Shown here: piece by piece, positions 10,359 to 26,410 of the stretch
Layout: every line of letters begins with the position of its first letter
Position numbering within the stretch: position 1 is the stretch's first letter
The notes under the pieces: model-generated
Seen by the model: only the letters and a program-made list of their open reading frames with translations
Told to the model about the DNA's origin: nothing
Databases searched by the model: none
IMG/VR virus record: IMGVR_UViG_3300026774_000001
Location: 1-60,694 of that record
DNA length: 60,694 nt
Reading direction: 5' to 3' (one strand)
From: a virus
Program-made: the position numbers and the translations under genes

Positions 10359-10850
10359 ATGTACGTGGCGACAAACCGTCAGAAAAAGAACGCCTTCGCG
10401 AAGCGGGCCGACTTGCAGCGCAAGGCCGAGGAGAAACCCAAGGCCGCGCCTCGCGCGACCCCAACGCCCGTGGCCGAGCCGAAGCCTGATCTCGAAGCGC
10501 TGAAGGCTGCGGCGGCGCTGGCGGCTGCTCTCATTCACGCGGATGCACCTGACGAGCTGGAGACATCGGACGAGATTCAAGGGGGGTCTGGAACTGATTT
10601 GGAGCCCGAAGCCGAGGCCGAACCGGAGCCCAAGCGCGGCCGTCCGATGTCCGCTGCGGTCGCCAAGCGGAACGCTACGATCCTCCAGCTTCTCGCCGAG
10701 AACCCCGAAGGGCTGTCGAAGCCGCAGCTCGCTACGGAACTCCGAGAGAAGGAGGCGAACGTGTACACCTCGCTGCGCCGTCTCCAGAGTGACGGGAAGG
10801 TTCGGATGGAGAACACCGAAGGTACCAAGTACCTGTGGTACCTGGTCTGA
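10359..10850 (+). CDS. winged-helix DNA-binding protein with Lys/Ala/Pro-rich N-terminus (163 aa)
   Basis: C-terminal ILQLLAENPEGLSKPQLATELREKEANVYTSLRRLQSDGKV = MarR/wHTH-like. Confidence 0.6.
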   Translation: MYVATNRQKKNAFAKRADLQRKAEEKPKAAPRATPTPVAEPKPDLEALKAAAALAAALIHADAPDELETSDEIQGGSGTDLEPEAEAEPEPKRGRPMSAAVAKRNATILQLLAENPEGLSKPQLATELREKEANVYTSLRRLQSDGKVRMENTEGTKYLWYLV

Positions 10851-11911: not shown

Positions 11912-11984
11912 GCACCGTTAGCTCAATGGAACGAGCGGCTGTCTTACAAACAGCGGGTCGGGGGTTCGACTCCCTCACGGTGTA
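11912..11984 (+). tRNA. tRNA-Val (anticodon TAC)
   Basis: Hand-folded 73-nt cloverleaf: acceptor gcaccgt/acggtgt, D gctc-aatggaac-gagc, anticodon arm gctgt-cTTACaa-acagc, T-arm ggggg-ttcgact-ccctc; no encoded CCA. Confidence 0.85.
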
Positions 11985-12066
11985 CTAGGTTCCAGAGGAC
12001 GTAGCCGCTAAGTCGGTTGGCGTGGGGTCAACAAACGTGGATGTAGCGCACCACCTGGAACCGCTA

Positions 12067-12139
12067 GGGCTGTTAGCTCCAACGGTAGAGCATCTGCTTT
12101 GCAAGCAGAGGGTTGTCGGTTCGAATCCGACATGGTCCA
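12067..12139 (+). tRNA. tRNA-Ala (anticodon TGC)
   Basis: 73-nt cloverleaf: acceptor gggctgt/atggtcc with G3:U70 Ala identity pair, D gctc-caacggta-gagc, anticodon arm tctgc-tTTGCaa-gcaga, T-arm gtcgg-ttcgaat-ccgac. Confidence 0.88.
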
Positions 12140-12190
12140 CGCGGGGAGGTTGGGCGCGCTGTGCGTGTTCGGCGCTCCGCACTACAACAT

Positions 12191-12318
12191 GGGTGTGTAC
12201 GGAAGGTCTCCGGTTCGATTCCGGTATCCGCGCGGTGCGGTGTGAGGTTCGATTCCTCTTAACCATGGTGGCGAATAGGGGGATACCCCGCCTGAGGGTT
12301 CGAATCCCTCCACACCCT
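12191..12318 (+). other. tRNA-derived / tRNA-like segment with three T-arm hairpins
   Basis: ccgg-ttcgatt-ccgg (12210-12224), gagg-ttcgatt-cctc (12244-12258), gaggg-ttcgaat-ccctc (12294-12310); perfect 7-bp closing helix gggtgtg (12191) / cacaccc (12311); no standard cloverleaf. Confidence 0.3.
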
Positions 12319-12434
12319 CAAGGTTCGGTGTCTCGCGAGTCCTGTCACGTTGAACGGCGTGACCTGAAAAGGCCGCAGGCCCTGCAAGGGGTACCGCGAG
12401 CCCGAACCGTAATACCTACAACGACGGAAGAAGG

Positions 12435-13061
12435 ATGATGCGAACTTACCCAAAGATCCCCGGTCCGTACAAGCGACACACAGAGGGGCCGGACCGGAAC
12501 AAACTCATCATCGGCCGTTGGACCTCACCGGAACTCGGGGCGCTCGCCAAACTCGATTGGACCTGGACTGAAAAAGTGGACGGGACGAACATCCGCGTCC
12601 ACTGGGACGGACACAGAGTCACCTTCGGTGGTCGCACCGACAACGCCCAGATTCCCGCGAAGCTCATTGAAGTGCTGCGAGCCCTCTTCACGGAAGAGAT
12701 CTTTGAACAAACCTTCAACGACACCGAGGTCACGCTCTTCGGCGAGGGGTTCGGTTCAGGTATCCAGTCGGGCGGAATCTACCGATCAGACCAAGGGTTC
12801 GCACTCTTCGACGTTCTGATTGGGCAGTTCTGGCTCAAGCGTCAGGATGTTGTCGACGTAGCGAACAAGATGGGTATCGAGTACGTGCCGTTGAAGCTCA
12901 CGGCTCCGATCTCCGAAGCGATCGACTTCGTGAAGGCCGGTGTTGGTTCCGACTGGAACGACGCCAAGGCCGAGGGCCTGGTGGGTGTTGCTCCCGAAGG
13001 GCTGCTCTCCCGATCTGGTGAACGGATCATGGTCAAGATCAAACACAAAGACTTCCAGTAG
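12435..13061 (+). CDS. ATP-dependent RNA ligase-family nucleotidyltransferase (208 aa)
   Basis: Motif I EKVDGTN (KxDG), motif III LFGEGFG, motif IV AEGLVGV, motif V MVKIKHKDF. Confidence 0.75.
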   Translation: MMRTYPKIPGPYKRHTEGPDRNKLIIGRWTSPELGALAKLDWTWTEKVDGTNIRVHWDGHRVTFGGRTDNAQIPAKLIEVLRALFTEEIFEQTFNDTEVTLFGEGFGSGIQSGGIYRSDQGFALFDVLIGQFWLKRQDVVDVANKMGIEYVPLKLTAPISEAIDFVKAGVGSDWNDAKAEGLVGVAPEGLLSRSGERIMVKIKHKDFQ

Positions 13062-13077
13062 GGAAATCAAACGCGAA

Positions 13078-13108
13078 GCGGGTACCCCTTGGGTGCCCGC
13101 TTTCTTTC
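13078..13108 (+). terminator. intrinsic terminator
   Basis: 10-bp stem gcgggtaccc/gggtgcccgc then tttctttc. Confidence 0.65.
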
Positions 13109-13109
13109 G

Positions 13110-13118
13110 TGCTATGGT
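13110..13118 (+). promoter_or_regulatory. extended -10 box TGcTATGGT
   Basis: Immediately after terminator, 27 nt before ATG 13145. Confidence 0.4.
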
Positions 13119-13144
13119 GGGAGTCCCCCCAAGATGAAGGATTC

Positions 13145-14383
13145 ATGATGGAAGATTTCACGTCAACCCCCGAAGGCGCACTCCTGAGCGCGTGCGCGCT
13201 CGGCGCGCTCATGCTCGCGCTCATCCTCTGGCGCACGGCGCAGGGCGCGCGCGCACGCGCATCGGAGCGCGCACGCGCGTGGGCGGACATCAAGCGCCCC
13301 GAGTGGGAAGCGCGCGCGCAGCGCAAGGCAGACGCGCGCGCATCAGGCGCGCGCGCCGACGCGCGCTTGCGCATCACACTCTTGAGTGCGGTTGCGCTCG
13401 TCGCGCTCGCCGCAACGAACCTGAGTGCGCACGCCACGATCACCGCCATACAGCGCATCGGCCTCACCTCCGTTGACGCCGCGATCTCGGCTGTGATTGT
13501 CTTCGAAGCGTGGCTCGCGATCCTGGGCGCGCTGTCCCTGCGGCACATGACGCGCGGCGAAGGATTCAACCGGTACGAGGCCGGTGTTTGGACCATGGCA
13601 AGCCTTATGGGCACTATCGCCTGGTGGGGTGGTGGCAGCCCCATCTTCGCGCTGTGGCCCCTTCTCGCGGCTGTCGCGTGGCACGTGGTCATCACCTTTG
13701 GCAGGCCGCACAAGCCGTCCGCTCTGGTCGTCTGGTGGCGTATGAAGCGCGGCAAGGCGACCTCGCAGGACGCGAGCGAGGTTCTTACCGAACGGCTCAT
13801 CACGCTCATTGTCAACACGGCATACGCGGCCAACGTTGGGCCCAAGATCACGCGCGCGTTCTACAAGCGCGCATATGATCGCGCGTGGGCGCGCGCGGAT
13901 GCGCTCGGCATTCTCACGCCGGAAGTGCGCGCGCGCATCCAGACGCGCATCGCCGCGCGCTACGTCGGTGCGCGCGCGCTCGCTCCTGAAGCGGTTGCGC
14001 ACATGAATCCTTGGAATGAGCGCGCATCGATGAGCGCGCGCACGGGCAACGCGCGCGCAGTGCGTCCGGTGAGCGCGCCTCCCGAGCGCGCACTCGAAGC
14101 GAGCGCACATGTTCCCGACGACGCGCGCGCACTCACAGATGACGCGCACGCATCGGAAGAGGTGCGCGCGCCTAAGCGGACCAAGAATGCGCCCGCAAGG
14201 GATGATGTGCTTGCGGCGATCGACGCGCAAGACATCCCTGCGGAGGCCAAGGCGTGCATGAAGGAATTCGTGGTCACCACGGGTATGTTGCCCCAGCAGA
14301 AGTGGATTGCGAGCGCGACTGGCAAGTCCATCGGGCACGCGGGCAAGTGGCTCACGCCGGTTCGCAAGGCACTCGGGTACTAG
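13145..14383 (+). CDS. polytopic membrane protein, DUF2637-like (412 aa), Ala-Arg-Ala-rich soluble regions
   Basis: ATG 13145 with SD gaagga; about 5 TM helices between residues ~20 and ~200; synteny with FtsK-like ATPase as in actinomycete conjugative elements. Confidence 0.6.
   Translation: MMEDFTSTPEGALLSACALGALMLALILWRTAQGARARASERARAWADIKRPEWEARAQRKADARASGARADARLRITLLSAVALVALAATNLSAHATITAIQRIGLTSVDAAISAVIVFEAWLAILGALSLRHMTRGEGFNRYEAGVWTMASLMGTIAWWGGGSPIFALWPLLAAVAWHVVITFGRPHKPSALVVWWRMKRGKATSQDASEVLTERLITLIVNTAYAANVGPKITRAFYKRAYDRAWARADALGILTPEVRARIQTRIAARYVGARALAPEAVAHMNPWNERASMSARTGNARAVRPVSAPPERALEASAHVPDDARALTDDAHASEEVRAPKRTKNAPARDDVLAAIDAQDIPAEAKACMKEFVVTTGMLPQQKWIASATGKSIGHAGKWLTPVRKALGY
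13240..14175. repeat. array 1 of alternating-GC palindromic motifs (core GCGCGCGC)
   Basis: At least 12 occurrences of (GC)4/(CG)4, e.g. 13246, 13310, 13333, 13347, 13851, 13890, 13927, 13970, 14033, 14050, 14122, 14163; all inside CDS 13145..14383. Confidence 0.85.
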
Positions 14384-14393
14384 CGAGACAGCG

Positions 14394-14424
14394 CCCGGCA
14401 CACCCTTAGGGGAGGTGTGCCGGG
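14394..14424 (+). terminator. 11-bp stem-loop cccggcacacc / ggtgtgccggg
   Basis: Perfect stem 10 nt after stop 14383; no T tract. Confidence 0.45.
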
Positions 14425-14577
14425 ACCGTGCCAGCGGCACACCCGCTGGCACACCGAAAACCACGATTGACCTGCGGAAACACTGTTTCGGCACACCGGC
14501 ACAGTGTGCCGAGAGTACCGCTCACTAAGTGTTTTCGCAGGTCACCGCGACCCTAGGAACAACCCGCCTGGTGTGCC
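14397..14577. repeat. intergenic array of 8-mer GGCACACC (5 forward, 3 reverse copies)
   Basis: Forward 14397, 14436, 14448, 14490, 14498 (half); reverse 14414, 14504, 14570. Confidence 0.8.
14468..14544. repeat. 17-bp inverted repeat TGACCTGCGGAAACACT / AGTGTTTTCGCAGGTCA
   Basis: 16/17 complementary arms at 14468-14484 and 14528-14544, flanking palindrome ggcacaGtgtgcc. Confidence 0.8.
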
Positions 14578-14591
14578 GTGCCGGTCGGGTG

Positions 14592-14597
14592 TATAAT
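14592..14597 (+). promoter_or_regulatory. -10 box TATAAT
   Basis: Consensus hexamer 38 nt before ATG 14636; no clear -35. Confidence 0.4.
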
Positions 14598-14635
14598 TAA
14601 TGCAGACCTAAGATCGAGACGAAAGGATCAAAGAC

Positions 14636-15109
14636 ATGACTGACGTAGTCGCCATCGAATCCACCCTGGGGAACGGTGCTGCGGGGTTCGTTGCCCTGGT
14701 GCTGTTCGCCGTCGCATGGATCATCAACGAGAAAGCCAACGGGAACAAAGCGGGTGCCATCTTTGCGCTGGTGCTCGCACTCGCCGGGTCGTTCGTGCTG
14801 TACGCGTCCACCTGGTCAGAGACCTGGTGCGGCTGGATGGGGAGCATCCTCACCGGTATCGGGGACATGTTCGGCGCTGAGATGTCGCTACCGTTCATGT
14901 TCAGCATGGCCTGCGTCGCCGCGGTCTTCATCATCGCGGTTGACCTGGGCGTGAACGCTAAGGACAACCCCTGGGCTGTCGGGGCCCTCCTGGTCGCCCC
15001 TGTGGTCGCCCACGGTGCTTCGGGCATCATCGGGAGCATGGCGCATGGGTTCTTCGGGGGGATGGCCCTGGGAGTTATCGAAGCACTCAAGTCATTGACG
15101 GGTGCCTGA
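14636..15109 (+). CDS. Gly/Ala-rich polytopic membrane protein (157 aa)
   Basis: ORF track; SD gaaagga; 4-5 TM helices. Confidence 0.7.
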   Translation: MTDVVAIESTLGNGAAGFVALVLFAVAWIINEKANGNKAGAIFALVLALAGSFVLYASTWSETWCGWMGSILTGIGDMFGAEMSLPFMFSMACVAAVFIIAVDLGVNAKDNPWAVGALLVAPVVAHGASGIIGSMAHGFFGGMALGVIEALKSLTGA

Positions 15110-16952
15110 CATGACCGAGAACGTAGAGAACAAACCGAATGCGCTCGCGCGCACGGCGCGCACCTCGTGGGGTTACACCCTGCGGGGTGCGCGCGCGCTC
15201 GCCGAAGATGCGCGCGCATGGACGCGCGCGGAAGGAATCGAAGCGCACATTCGGGAAAAGGATGCGCGCGCAATCGAATCGCAGCACCAACGAGCGATGC
15301 GCGCGCATGCGCGCAACGCGAAACGCAGAGGTGCGCGCGCGATTCCTCCGGTGCGCGCGCATGCGTTCACCGACCTCGAAGTGAATGCGCGCGCATTCGG
15401 AACGCGCGCATTCCGATGCGCGCTCACTCTTGCCGCACCGGCGTGCGCGCTCATCGCTCCGCCATGGATGTGCGTTGAAGGCAACCCCGGCGCGCTCCTC
15501 GCGTGGCCCGCTGCGTACGCATACCTGGCGTGGCTTGGCTGGACGAACCGCGAAGATTCGGAGCTGTCTGAGGTTATCTCGGTGACCACGCTGCCGCAGG
15601 CACCTACCGAAGAGAAGACGCGTCTGTTCTCTCGGAACCGCGTCGAGACGGGACTCAAGCCCAACGCACAGGAGTCGGCGATCATCAACCGGATTCACAC
15701 TTGGGAGGTGAACGCAGCGGATCGCAAGCTGCATGAGGTGTTCCCCGGCTCGCCGATCATCGATGAGTCCGGCATACTCATCCCAATGGAGTTCGCAGGG
15801 CTGTGGACGCCCGCGAAGCTCGATAACCAGGTGGACCAACTGCGAGCACTGCTCGCGGTTCCCGATGAGGTCAAGACGCAAGTCAAGCCTGGCGGTACCG
15901 CTGACCGTGCGGTCCTGCGTATTCGCACGCGAGTGCGGGACTTGGACCTCACCTGGTCACCGGAGCGCAAAGGGCTCGGCCTCAATGCCGACACGGGCGA
16001 AGTCGTCAGTGTCGACGTGACCGACCGCCTCAGCGTCGCGGGCATGTCGGGAGCGGGCAAGTCCGTTGCGCTGCGCGTACTCATGGCGGAAGCGCTCGGG
16101 CTGCCAAACACCGCGCTGGTCATCATTGACCTTAAGGTGGAAGGTGCGCTCTGGGCGCATGTCGCGCGCGTCGAGTCCGAGGCAGACGGTATCCAGTCGG
16201 TCATTGACGACCTGGTGACCGAGATGAAGGAGCGCGAGGCGATCATGCGAACCGAAAGCCTGGACACTTGGGAGCCAACGCCTGAGCGTCCGCGCATCGT
16301 CGTTGTCGTTGACGAAGGGGCTGAGCTGATGTCCGAGGTCCCCGACTCCGTGACCGGCCTGCGTTCGATCGCGCGTCGTGCAAGGTCGGCAGAGATCCCG
16401 CTGTGGTGGGCCACGCAGAAGCCCACCGTGACCGGACCGGGCAAGGGACTCGACTCCGCGATTTCGGCTCAGCTCACCTCACAAGTGTGCATGGCCGTGT
16501 CCAGCCCGACCGAGGCGCGCAACGTCCTCGGAGAGGATGCCACCGCTAAGGGATGGCACGCGGAAGACCTGCTTAAGGGCGGGTGGTCGCTCGTGCGCGT
16601 GCAGGGTGAGGACCGAACCCCGGACCCTACCCGCGTGTGGCACATGACAAAGGAGGACGTGAAGGCTATCGCCCCGCGTTCCCCGTGGCGTCGGGCGAAG
16701 ACGCTGGCCCCCGTGGTCGATGCGAAAGACGCTCTGGTGGTCGCGTTGGACCTGTCCGAGGGATTGCAGGGTGTGTCTACGGTCCGTATCGGCGTTGCTC
16801 TCGGCGTCTCTGACGCTGAGGTGCACGTGCGTATGCGCGTGCACGGTGTCGATCCGGAACCCAACGCCTTCGCGATGGGCAACGGGGAGAAGGCCCGTGG
16901 ATACCGCAGAGATAAGCTTGAAGCAGCGTTCAACAGGAGGAATGACCGATGA
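15102..16952 (+). CDS. FtsK/SpoIIIE/TraB-like DNA translocase (616 aa)
   Basis: Walker A GMSGAGKS, Walker B IVVVVDEGAEL, two N-terminal TM helices, basic ARA-rich N-terminus, possible C-terminal wHTH; start GTG 15102 or ATG 15111. Confidence 0.85.
   Translation: MPDMTENVENKPNALARTARTSWGYTLRGARALAEDARAWTRAEGIEAHIREKDARAIESQHQRAMRAHARNAKRRGARAIPPVRAHAFTDLEVNARAFGTRAFRCALTLAAPACALIAPPWMCVEGNPGALLAWPAAYAYLAWLGWTNREDSELSEVISVTTLPQAPTEEKTRLFSRNRVETGLKPNAQESAIINRIHTWEVNAADRKLHEVFPGSPIIDESGILIPMEFAGLWTPAKLDNQVDQLRALLAVPDEVKTQVKPGGTADRAVLRIRTRVRDLDLTWSPERKGLGLNADTGEVVSVDVTDRLSVAGMSGAGKSVALRVLMAEALGLPNTALVIIDLKVEGALWAHVARVESEADGIQSVIDDLVTEMKEREAIMRTESLDTWEPTPERPRIVVVVDEGAELMSEVPDSVTGLRSIARRARSAEIPLWWATQKPTVTGPGKGLDSAISAQLTSQVCMAVSSPTEARNVLGEDATAKGWHAEDLLKGGWSLVRVQGEDRTPDPTRVWHMTKEDVKAIAPRSPWRRAKTLAPVVDAKDALVVALDLSEGLQGVSTVRIGVALGVSDAEVHVRMRVHGVDPEPNAFAMGNGEKARGYRRDKLEAAFNRRNDR
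15140..15455. repeat. array 2 of alternating-GC palindromes (ATGCGCGCGCAT family)
   Basis: About 10 copies: 15188, 15208-15219 ATGCGCGCGCAT, 15222, 15262, 15297-15308 ATGCGCGCGCAT, 15332, 15351, 15383-15398 GAATGCGCGCGCATTC (16-bp perfect palindrome), 15403. Confidence 0.85.
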
Positions 16953-25535: not shown

Positions 25536-26410
25536 TTATTTCCCGCGTTTCCTGCCGCTCACTCCCGGTGCGGTCAACGTCGCCATGGCCGCTTTCGAAT
25601 TGAAGTTGTTCGTCTTGTCGTCCCCGTACCATGCGGGTTTCGGAGCGCGCTTGCGCTCCGGTCTGCCGTTCCGCGGAGCCGCGATTGCCTTCGCAACTGC
25701 GGGACCTGCTTTCTGCATGTCCCACTCCGCCACCTTCTCAGCGATCACCGCATCGAATTTGTCTTTGTCCTCGGTTGAAGCGTTGCGCGTGGCAAAGTAG
25801 TACACCAAGTTGAGCCATTGATCCCAAGGCAGTTGCAAGTGGTCGACGTTGCGTGAAGCGCACCAACCGTCGAAGGTGGGCCACACCTGATCCGATGTGG
25901 CCCAATCCTCTAGGGAGATTGCGGCAACGTAATGCCTTTTCCCAGTGCTTCACCGATCACCCAAGTGAGAATTTCGTAGAACGCCCCGATGTCGATCGCA
26001 TCGTATTCGCCATCGAATCGACGCTTGAAGCGGCCGAGCGATTCGGACTCGAAGACTTCGGCAAGCAGCTTGAAGATCGGCTCAGTTGCATCACGGTCAA
26101 CGTTTTCATCCGCGGCGAGTGACTGAATTTCGATCGCCTTACGGTAGACCGCAAGCGCAGCAGGACTGACGGGTTCAGCCCCATCAGGGGAAACGAGTGC
26201 CAGAATTTCACCCGCGAGACGAGAGAACTCATCGACACGCGGATCCCTCATCGTTTCTGCGGGTGCCTGAGCTGCTGCCTGCATTTCCCCGGCAAGACGG
26301 GAAAGCTCGGTCATCCGCCCAGCGGGAACACTCGCCTTAAGGCTGAACACCTCATCGTCGATGTCGAATTCGATGGGTTCTTTCCGCGTGGTAAAGCTCT
26401 TACGAGTCAT
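25536..26410 (-). CDS. tail assembly chaperone G-T fusion via -1 programmed frameshift
   Basis: ORF 25536..25886 lies in the -1 frame relative to 25910..26410 and that frame is open from the slippery site at 25943. Confidence 0.7.
25910..26410 (-). CDS. tail assembly chaperone (G-like, 166 aa)
   Basis: Position immediately upstream of tape measure; acidic protein. Confidence 0.75.
   Translation of the reverse strand: MTRKSFTTRKEPIEFDIDDEVFSLKASVPAGRMTELSRLAGEMQAAAQAPAETMRDPRVDEFSRLAGEILALVSPDGAEPVSPAALAVYRKAIEIQSLAADENVDRDATEPIFKLLAEVFESESLGRFKRRFDGEYDAIDIGAFYEILTWVIGEALGKGITLPQSP
25937..25943 (-). promoter_or_regulatory. -1 frameshift slippery heptamer G GGA AAA
   Basis: Minus strand reads ctG GGA AAA ggc, 9 codons before the G stop. 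Confidence 0.7.

Follow-up and report, generated by a model that had tools for sequence, protein, structure and literature searches.

A clt-like repeat field beside the gene for a Tra/TraB-type translocase in an uncultivated actinobacterial tailed phage

The membrane-protein/tra locus and its non-coding repeat field

The window, i.e. the whole 60.7-kb stretch of DNA that was analyzed, represents the genome of a tailed phage (siphophage), which is uncultivated and actinobacterial. DNA polymerase I, a helicase, an exonuclease and a Sak4-like protein are encoded at 3–10 kb and primase-like genes are found at 55–60 kb, while the tail, tape-measure, major head, portal and large terminase genes occupy the minus strand between 19.5 and 45 kb. 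A near-identity search against 50,697 phage records retrieved no close DNA relative. Among isolated phages, the capsid and the translocase described below are nearest to those of Woodruffvirus-type Streptomyces phages (33–38% identity), and well over a hundred related contigs, each 58–63 kb in length, are present in metagenomes. The locus addressed here comprises the following genes and flanking arrays:

13109–14383, plus strand: gene for a 424-aa membrane protein, the stop codon of which abuts the repeat field
13180–14200: left GCGCGC array, located inside the coding sequence of the 424-aa gene
14636–15109, plus strand: gene for a small multi-pass membrane protein (157 aa) without Pfam match
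15102–16952, plus strand: tra, encoding a Tra/TraB-type FtsK-like dsDNA translocase of 616 aa (PF01580 at 1.7e-12)
15130–15450: right GCGCGC array, TGCGCGCGCA occurring five times within the first 350 nt of tra

The translocase shares 36% identity over 373 aa with Tra of pIJ101 (E 3e-56), has its best matches among plasmids in small conjugative ones of Streptomyces, and matches the NCBIfam TraB model weakly. Judged from these similarities, it belongs to the conjugation branch of the FtsK-like pumps. Many actinophage genomes are annotated as encoding FtsK-like translocases, and we know of no function for these proteins. The AlphaFold2 model of the protein (pLDDT 79.7) shows the motor domain together with N-terminal helices and, at the C-terminus, a helix-strand-helix-helix-strand-strand arrangement, the elements of which (helices 544–551, 560–567 and 571–579, strands 557–559 and 600–602) are modeled with pLDDT values of about 83–87. 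The C-terminus, encompassing residues about 541–616 (nt 16722–16949), is accordingly predicted to form a winged helix; no match was obtained when this domain was compared with Pfam helix-turn-helix families. This domain is one of the most highly conserved portions of the protein, with column identities of 0.82–0.88 among relatives and the signature LSEGLxGVST...EVHxRMR...PEPNAFAMGNGEKARGYRR.

The start of tra (15102) overlaps the end of the 157-aa gene, and this small gene is all that intervenes between the end of the repeat field and tra, which are 525 bp apart. For the 424-aa gene on the other side, a true start near 13145 is suggested, since its homologues measure about 412 aa. The 424-aa protein could not be assigned to any Pfam, PHROG or NCBIfam family, tblastn against the 50,697 phage records yielded nothing, and similarity to SpdB of pIJ101 or to gp70 of phage YDN12 was not detectable. 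In a large homology search, relatives of this protein were retrieved within this phage clade only.

The gap between the two membrane-protein genes (14384–14635) had been described as non-coding in the initial annotation. This holds, because the indels found in this gap in relatives are not multiples of three (e.g. 11 nt and 13 nt). The gap contains the following elements:

14394–14424, plus strand: hairpin 1, CCCGGCACACC-N9-GGTGTGCCGGG, a perfect 11-bp inverted repeat comprising one forward and one reverse motif copy
14428–14455, plus strand: hairpin 2, GTGCCAGCGG / CCGCTGGCAC, in which a reverse GTGCC core (14428) precedes two forward copies (14436, 14448)
14468–14484, plus strand: left arm of the long inverted repeat, TGACCTGCGGAAACACT
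14490–14510: central sites inside the long inverted repeat, i.e. GGCACACC at 14490 followed by the palindrome GGCACAGTGTGCC at 14498–14510
14528–14544, plus strand: right arm of the long inverted repeat, AGTGTTTTCGCAGGTCA
14570–14582, minus strand: two reverse cores, GGTGTGCC followed by GTGCC, covering the -35/spacer position of a promoter-like element
14590–14597, plus strand: -10 promoter-like element TGTATAAT, reading into the membrane-protein/tra operon

Eight copies of the repeated word had been claimed for this field. Exact copies of GGCACACC number six in the interval 14397–14577, and all of their previously listed positions are correct (14397, 14436, 14448 and 14490 on the plus strand, 14414 and 14570 on the minus strand). 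In addition, two near-copies are supplied by the 13-bp palindrome that had likewise been noticed at 14498: GGCACAGT on the plus strand and GGCACACT, which deviates from GGCACACC by one mismatch, on the minus strand. Further GTGCC cores are present at 14428 and 14578. Altogether, ten GGCAC/GTGCC cores, corresponding to six exact and four partial copies, are packed into about 190 bp (14397–14582). Along the field their orientation reads + - - + + [left arm] + + - [right arm] - -.

The entire window contains ten exact copies of GGCACACC as compared to 3.26 +/- 1.86 expected, and none of 100 shuffles reached this number. Clustering is likewise pronounced: per 200 bp, the field holds six exact copies vs. 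a maximum of two in 300 dinucleotide shuffles, and ten GGCAC cores vs. a maximum of seven, which was attained once in the 300 shuffles. The 190-bp field is the sole such cluster in the 60.7-kb genome. The four other exact copies are scattered over the window, two of them (43236 and 45627) being read as chance matches inside coding sequence. A regulon marked by these single 8-mers or by clusters of GGCAC at 47.7–48.8 kb was considered and rejected, since these, too, read like chance matches in coding sequence.

Hairpin 1 starts 11 nt past the stop codon of the upstream gene and folds as RNA with -25.1 kcal/mol (z -3.6). It lacks a T tract, but looks like a terminator for the 424-aa gene. Hairpin 2, in which the two forward copies are spaced by 12 bp, reaches -20.8 kcal/mol (z -5.0), the stem-loop itself covering 14428–14452. 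The 17-nt arms of the long inverted repeat are complementary at 16 of 17 positions (94%), as reported before, and the element spanning 14464–14548 folds with -45.6 kcal/mol (z -6.9). The -10-like element TGTATAAT occurs once in the window and is kept in relatives; transcription is predicted to start near 14604, and a Shine-Dalgarno sequence is present between TGTATAAT and the ATG of the 157-aa gene at 14636. A consensus promoter/terminator scan called neither the hairpins nor the -10 element in the gap, because a -35 hexamer and a T tract are missing.

Conservation of sites and symmetry among relatives

A scan of viral contigs delivered 24 loci encoding translocases 58–95% identical to that of the window, and the gap was readable in 22 of them. 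The question whether the repeats recur at the syntenic position in relatives, raised by the initial annotation, can be answered for all 22 readable gaps: the field is kept in each of them. The number of GGCAC cores per relative ranges from 4 to 13 (7–13 in all except one, L013), and the sites conform to the consensus YGGCACRSY. The cores remain GGCAC(A/G) throughout, while flanks, loops and some site positions vary. In the central sites, the columns GGCAC..GTGTGCC show no or hardly any variation over the 22 sequences, and the best conserved block of the gap is CTGGTGTGCCGTGCCGG-N-GTGTATAAT. The conserved 20-base promoter-block pattern, of which 12+8 bases are specified, had no match in 185,579 species genomes. 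The more distant of these relatives possess extra cores elsewhere, e.g. GGGCACCC...GGGTGCCC just ahead of the promoter.

The symmetry of the field is also retained. Hairpin 1 has eight core pairs, of which six are invariant over the 22 sequences and two deviate in one or two sequences only, while its three outer pairs covary, with compensatory changes in 7, 7 and 1 sequences, respectively. In the long inverted repeat, 85% of the cells are paired in relatives vs. 32–41% in slid controls, and five pairs are altered on both sides. Hairpin 2 is confined to the closer relatives (68% of cells paired). Long-range pairs proposed by RNAalifold were not used, since any forward copy can pair with any reverse copy. 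Judged from these alignments, both the sequence and the symmetry of the field are under selection.

These data bear on the idea that the field is a structured RNA, e.g. a 3'-UTR/processing element or a small RNA, and that the word is a by-product of its stems. The three very stable stem-loops (z -3.6 to -6.9) are in agreement with this idea, and so are the compensatory changes, which affect the long inverted repeat as well as the outer pairs of hairpin 1. However, the stem cores are invariant rather than covarying, and many copies are unpaired direct repeats (14436, 14448, 14490, 14570–14582). Mismatches in the long inverted repeat are of both the G-U and the A-C type, and therefore neither strand is favored. 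A comparison with Rfam gave no match inside the gap, and the three hits below threshold that were obtained in 13000–15500 are all located outside of it. In addition, copy number, spacing and orientation differ between clades, while the word is kept. As the sites turn over and their number is maintained, an array of protein-binding sites would be expected rather than one RNA fold. We consider a structured RNA to be the least probable explanation of those weighed here.

Distant tra modules and exchange of the repeated word

It had also been suggested to inspect homologous phages for arrays of their own. Such arrays were indeed found beside tra in more distantly related elements, and they are composed of other words (GGAACGG, GGTGAAC and AGACRS) as well as of the GGCAC type:

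L032 and L036 (metagenome; Actinomycetes MAG): Tra 37% identical to that of the window, C-terminal domain of the window type, 10 GGCAC-type sites, mostly direct
L050 (41-kb contig of a Streptomonospora wellingtoniae isolate): Tra about 36–39% identical, C-terminal domain a variant that differs in its wing, AGACRS at 11 sites
L034 and L049 (Nocardiopsis kunsanensis): Tra about 36–42% identical, MarR-like winged helix, 7–10 GGTGAAC/GTTCACC sites
Streptomyces phages YDN12 and Xkcd426: Tra 33–38% identical, HTH_24/MarR-like winged helix, direct GGAACGG copies with 9- or 12-bp spacing

Homologues of the 157-aa protein are encoded directly upstream of tra in L032/L036, where the small membrane-protein gene is thus also present, and in L034, L049 and L050. 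As far as flanks are available, this gene and tra are the only genes common to the window, L036, L034, L049 and L050. The field of L032/L036 is placed immediately downstream of tra and contains a GACCTG...CAGGTC repeat, and L032 carries a shorter version of the arm of the window's long inverted repeat. In L050, the field follows right after tra, its inverted repeat (CTGACCTGCGGAAAAG / CGCGTTTCCGCAGGTG) is nearly identical to that of the window, and the layout + - - + + + [left arm] + + [right arm] - - - is the same as the one described above for the window. The sites of L034 and L049 surround a GAAAACGCGGG inverted repeat, again right after tra. In the two Streptomyces phages the array is located upstream of tra, with a terminator hairpin on one side and a -10-like element on the other. 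They share with the window both the position of the array between an upstream membrane/helix-turn-helix protein gene and tra and the order of terminator hairpin, repeat array and -10-like element. In contrast to the window, their copies of GGAACGG are all direct, the C-terminus of their Tra is MarR/HTH_24-like, and the long TGACCTGCGG inverted repeat is missing.

Shuffle tests with exact k-mers support the arrays of the window, L034, YDN12 and L032, the latter two marginally, as their values were reached by 2 of 100 (YDN12) and 3 of 100 (L032) shuffles. In the complete genome of YDN12, 6 of the 23 GGAACGG copies fall into 118 bp and form the only cluster, while the array of Xkcd426 is not the top cluster by exact k-mers. 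The same test gave nothing significant in Mischief19 or L033. In L033 no array adjoins tra; the GGCCCAC repeats that are seen by eye downstream of tra in Mischief19 were not counted, being non-significant with exact k-mers.

Taken together, the field is invariably associated in these comparisons with tra or with a membrane-protein/tra module, which it may precede or follow. The word of the array changes along with the winged-helix domain at the C-terminus of Tra, a link that is based on about five independent lineages. The field of the window is homologous to the tra-adjacent field in the chromosomal contig of an actinomycete isolate.

The association with tra is also relevant for the possibility that the field constitutes an iteron-type replication origin or a partition site, to which an initiator or a centromere-binding protein would bind. 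In favor of this, the gap has strong secondary structure and is similar in appearance to iteron origins known from actinomycete plasmids, such as that of pWTY27, where 300 bp hold five GTGGGAAC, five TTCCCAC and three inverted repeats (PMC3583192). However, the field follows tra across clades and not replication genes, none of which adjoins it in the window (polymerase, helicase, exonuclease and Sak4 at 3–10 kb, primases at 55–60 kb). Neither ParA/ParB nor a Rep-like protein was found in the neighborhood, and the gap is devoid of an extended AT-rich unwinding element. An origin or partition site is very improbable in our view, and this reading, like that of a structured RNA, fits the data less well than a clt-like or an operator function. 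Readings of the field as origin, pac/cos or attP site had been dropped on gene positions alone (terminase gene at 43–45 kb; no integrase among the larger ORFs scanned in the window).

A candidate docking site for the translocase and its likeness to known systems

In Streptomyces plasmids, the clt loci that have been defined by experiment are located beside tra, comprise 54–175 bp with several 5–9-bp direct repeats plus inverted repeats (PMC3583192) and are bound by the cognate Tra protein (PMC3583192, PMC4447253). TraB reads 8-bp repeats via its C-terminal domain (PMC4447253, PMC3583192). Clt of pJV1 contains nine CCGCACA[CG][CG], and that of pWTY27 contains four TGACACC plus inverted repeats and has been footprinted by TraA (PMC3583192). 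The phage field resembles these loci in being short, non-coding and adjacent to the gene of a Tra-family FtsK-like translocase, and in consisting of several copies of one element-specific 5–9-bp word combined with imperfect inverted repeats. A C-terminal winged helix, as in the pumps of the plasmid systems, is predicted for the pump of the window. Even the words are alike, when CCGCACA[CG][CG] of pJV1 and TGACACC of pWTY27 (PMC3583192) are compared with (C/T)GGCACACC of the phage. The fields of L032, L034, L049 and L050, which immediately follow tra, have the same position as the mapped clt of pWTY27.

There are also differences. The carrier is not a plasmid or AICE, but a tailed phage that encodes terminase, portal, capsid and tape-measure proteins, and its field is known by sequence comparison. 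In classical clt the repeats are mostly direct, whereas the phage copies have mixed orientation and reside partly in hairpins. Unlike plasmid clt, the phage field overlaps a terminator-like hairpin and a promoter and is flanked by GCGCGC arrays. In a search of the literature, no description of clt-like arrays in phages was found, nor of the arrays in YDN12 and Xkcd426. To our knowledge, there is no known need of a tailed phage for a clt.

Another class of sites is represented by KOPS and SRS, the 8-bp words that are read by the winged-helix gamma domain of the hexameric dsDNA pumps FtsK and SpoIIIE. KOPS occur chromosome-wide with skewed orientation and steer the motor, whereas the phage word is concentrated in one 190-bp field and shows no over-representation outside of it, with four scattered copies in 60 kb. 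A KOPS-like, strand-biased dispersal over the genome is not observed: six of the ten exact copies reside in one gap, and orientations within the field are mixed.

With somewhat better than even confidence we favor the interpretation that the field serves the translocase as a clt-like docking region with multiple sites, which overlaps a terminator and a promoter. This interpretation is put forward because the field accompanies tra, the word follows the C-terminus of Tra, no other DNA-binding gene travels along, and the make-up matches that of clt. In this model, the about ten sites (YGGCACRSY in both orientations) arranged around the conserved long inverted repeat TGACCTGCGGAAAC...GTTTTCGCAGGTCA would serve as nucleoprotein assembly site and would be recognized by the C-terminal winged-helix domains of the neighboring hexameric Tra/TraB-type dsDNA translocase. 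As a consequence of this recognition, the pump could be loaded specifically on phage DNA, e.g. to move it between hyphal compartments. The conserved TGACCTGCGGAAA inverted repeat could form a cruciform/hairpin or provide a second protein site. The first two sites double as terminator-like hairpin for the upstream gene, while the last two lie over the -35 position of the conserved membrane-protein/tra operon promoter, so that their occupancy would probably throttle expression of the pump, too; in plasmids, such a pump is lethal if not kept under control. Such self-throttling would replace the KorA/TraR repressors of plasmids, which are absent from the phage module. In the initial annotation, the field had been regarded as the best candidate for a cis-acting site at which the translocase is recognized or loaded, or else as an operator; the fields in relatives and the different words beside tra in other elements lend support to this proposal.

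The main rival is purely transcriptional control, in which the field would combine a terminator with a multi-site operator for a dedicated phage or host regulator other than Tra, gating a potentially lethal operon. The terminator-like hairpin right behind the stop codon and the conserved TGTATAAT with two cores over the -35/spacer region are compatible with this scenario. The fields of L032, YDN12 and Xkcd426 likewise end in a -10-like element. More generally, such an element, accompanied by a motif copy over the -35 position, closes the field in every clade; this is operator-like and speaks against a clt-like reading, as does the limitation of the link between word and C-terminal domain to about five independent lineages. 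In plasmids, tra genes are kil genes and are repressed via repeats in the promoter region; the KorA/TraR (GntR-type) operators are composed of repeats as well as inverted repeats and lie where kil-type tra/spd operons have their promoter, which is reminiscent of the two phage sites over the -35 position (PMC4447253). A weak candidate for a winged-helix regulator is encoded at 10359–10850.

However, ten sites for a single promoter without a second cluster in the genome would be unusual for a regulator and are far more than a simple operator needs. Unlike the plasmid systems, the phage module lacks a GntR or other regulator gene, and none travels with the field: the membrane-protein gene and tra alone are shared across clades. 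In L032, L034, L049 and L050 the field is not located before the operon, but downstream of tra. The word, moreover, changes along with the C-terminus of Tra. The 424-aa neighbor is a poor candidate for the reader of the invariant word, because its helix-turn-helix-like C-terminal tail is variable, representing the least conserved part of the protein (0.42–0.61). Thus, an operator for a separate regulator explains the overlap with the promoter, but not the number of sites, the downstream position in four elements and the missing co-traveling regulator gene. As sole function of the field we regard it as possible, though on balance unlikely; an operator role may exist alongside the docking role.

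If the field is a docking site for the pump, what appears to be new is that a tailed phage carries a clt-type site, the two-part grammar of which is also present on chromosomal contigs of actinomycete isolates. The clt concept would be widened from plasmids and AICEs to viruses, and phage DNA may pass between compartments of a mycelial host without particles. SpdB2 homologues have been found on actinophages and were suggested to aid the spread of phage DNA (PMC4447253). A wider and, as we see it, doubtful extension is that tailed actinophages carry a complete, self-recognizing DNA-transfer cassette of the Streptomyces type, consisting of membrane protein, TraB-like pump and cognate clt, which would move replicated phage genomes in the form of naked dsDNA across septa or between adjacent cells without virions. 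The grammar of clt would then be common to phages and integrated actinomycete elements, i.e. the TGACCTGCGGAAA inverted repeat combined with exchangeable words that are read by a winged helix. Under the docking interpretation, the rule that the word of the array follows the C-terminal domain of Tra would predict clt sites of uncharacterized elements, and GGCACRS, AGACRS, GGTGAAC and GGAACGG would represent natural specificity variants for DNA reading by the winged-helix domains of these pumps. The presence of a conserved recognition field beside the gene makes the DNA target of the pump and the effect of site removal experimentally addressable.

The location of the field between two arrays of GC palindromes, which had been pointed out before, is confirmed by the GCGCGC-rich stretches on both sides. 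We know of no plasmid counterpart of these flanking arrays. They are absent from L032, and L050 has no enriched GCGCGC-type k-mer. Within the clade of the window they are conserved, and codon choice inside them is biased toward GCG and CGC. The arrays are under selection at the DNA level and represent a candidate for an alternative target of the pump.

Codon choice in the GCGCGC arrays beside the repeat field

The repeat field in the non-coding gap upstream of the small membrane-protein gene is accompanied on either side by arrays of GCGCGC, both of which are located within protein-coding sequence.

GCGCGC arrays
13180-14200, inside the gene of the 424-aa membrane protein
15130-15450, within the first 350 nt of tra, the gene of the FtsK-like dsDNA translocase

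Segment 13000-15500 comprises 61 of the 101 GCGCGC occurrences of the whole window, and five copies of TGCGCGCGCA are found at 15209-15395, the spacing of which alternates (54, 35, 54 and 34 bp). Codon usage is also biased: GCG accounts for 65% of the Ala codons inside the arrays as compared to 39% outside, and CGC for 77% versus 35% of the Arg codons. Ala-Arg-Ala tripeptides occur 15 times in the 447 codons of the arrays, but only 7 times in 14,539 codons otherwise, and 13 of these 15 are encoded by GCGCGCGCN. The biased codon choice shows that the GCGCGC arrays are under selection at the DNA level. The arrays are retained in all relatives belonging to the same clade. As for the more distant tra modules, GCGCGC arrays are absent from L032, and no enriched k-mer of the GCGCGC type was detectable in L050 (Streptomonospora) and in Streptomyces phage YDN12.

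Variable segments around the field

A mosaic hot spot separates the field from tra, namely the gene of the small membrane protein (14636-15109). In relatives L001 and L007, this gene is just 34-37% identical to that of the window, while the flanking genes are about 95% identical. In L010, by contrast, it is 96% identical and tra 81%. Upstream of the field, the helix-turn-helix-like C-terminal region of the 424-aa protein (C-terminal third, 14131-14383) is hypervariable across relatives, whereas its final residues (W.TPVRKALGY) are fixed; this region may represent a swappable specificity module. In relatives L009 (5226-5300) and L013 (5212-5300), about 70-90 nt of inserted sequence follow the stop codon, ahead of the field. 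This segment, possibly a small mobile insertion, carries a direct repeat of its own, i.e. two copies of GTTGTCATGTTC.

Other repeats and neighboring tRNA genes

At least three genes of the window are preceded by a near-identical translation-initiation leader, GA(A/C)(A/G)(A/G)GGATCAAAGAC(AC)ATG.

Translation-initiation leaders
14617-14638
47937-47961
48113-48134

CGACGCCG is densely repeated, at 6-8 copies per 200 bp, inside gene 146 of Streptomyces phage JustBecause (L027, 3380-3650), two genes upstream of its FtsK-like gene; this array may be either a protein repeat or a DNA signal. In this unrelated 184-kb phage, the FtsK-like gene is neighbored by an RNA ligase gene as well as by tRNA genes. 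In the window, tRNA-Val, tRNA-Ala and an RNA ligase gene, together spanning 11912-13061, are located directly upstream of the tra module. This grouping may be a recurring neighborhood. A further tRNA call was made by ARAGORN between two small tail-region genes.

25853-25951, (-) strand, "tRNA-Pyl", anticodon CTA, 99 nt

This call is probably either spurious or an element resembling an amber suppressor.
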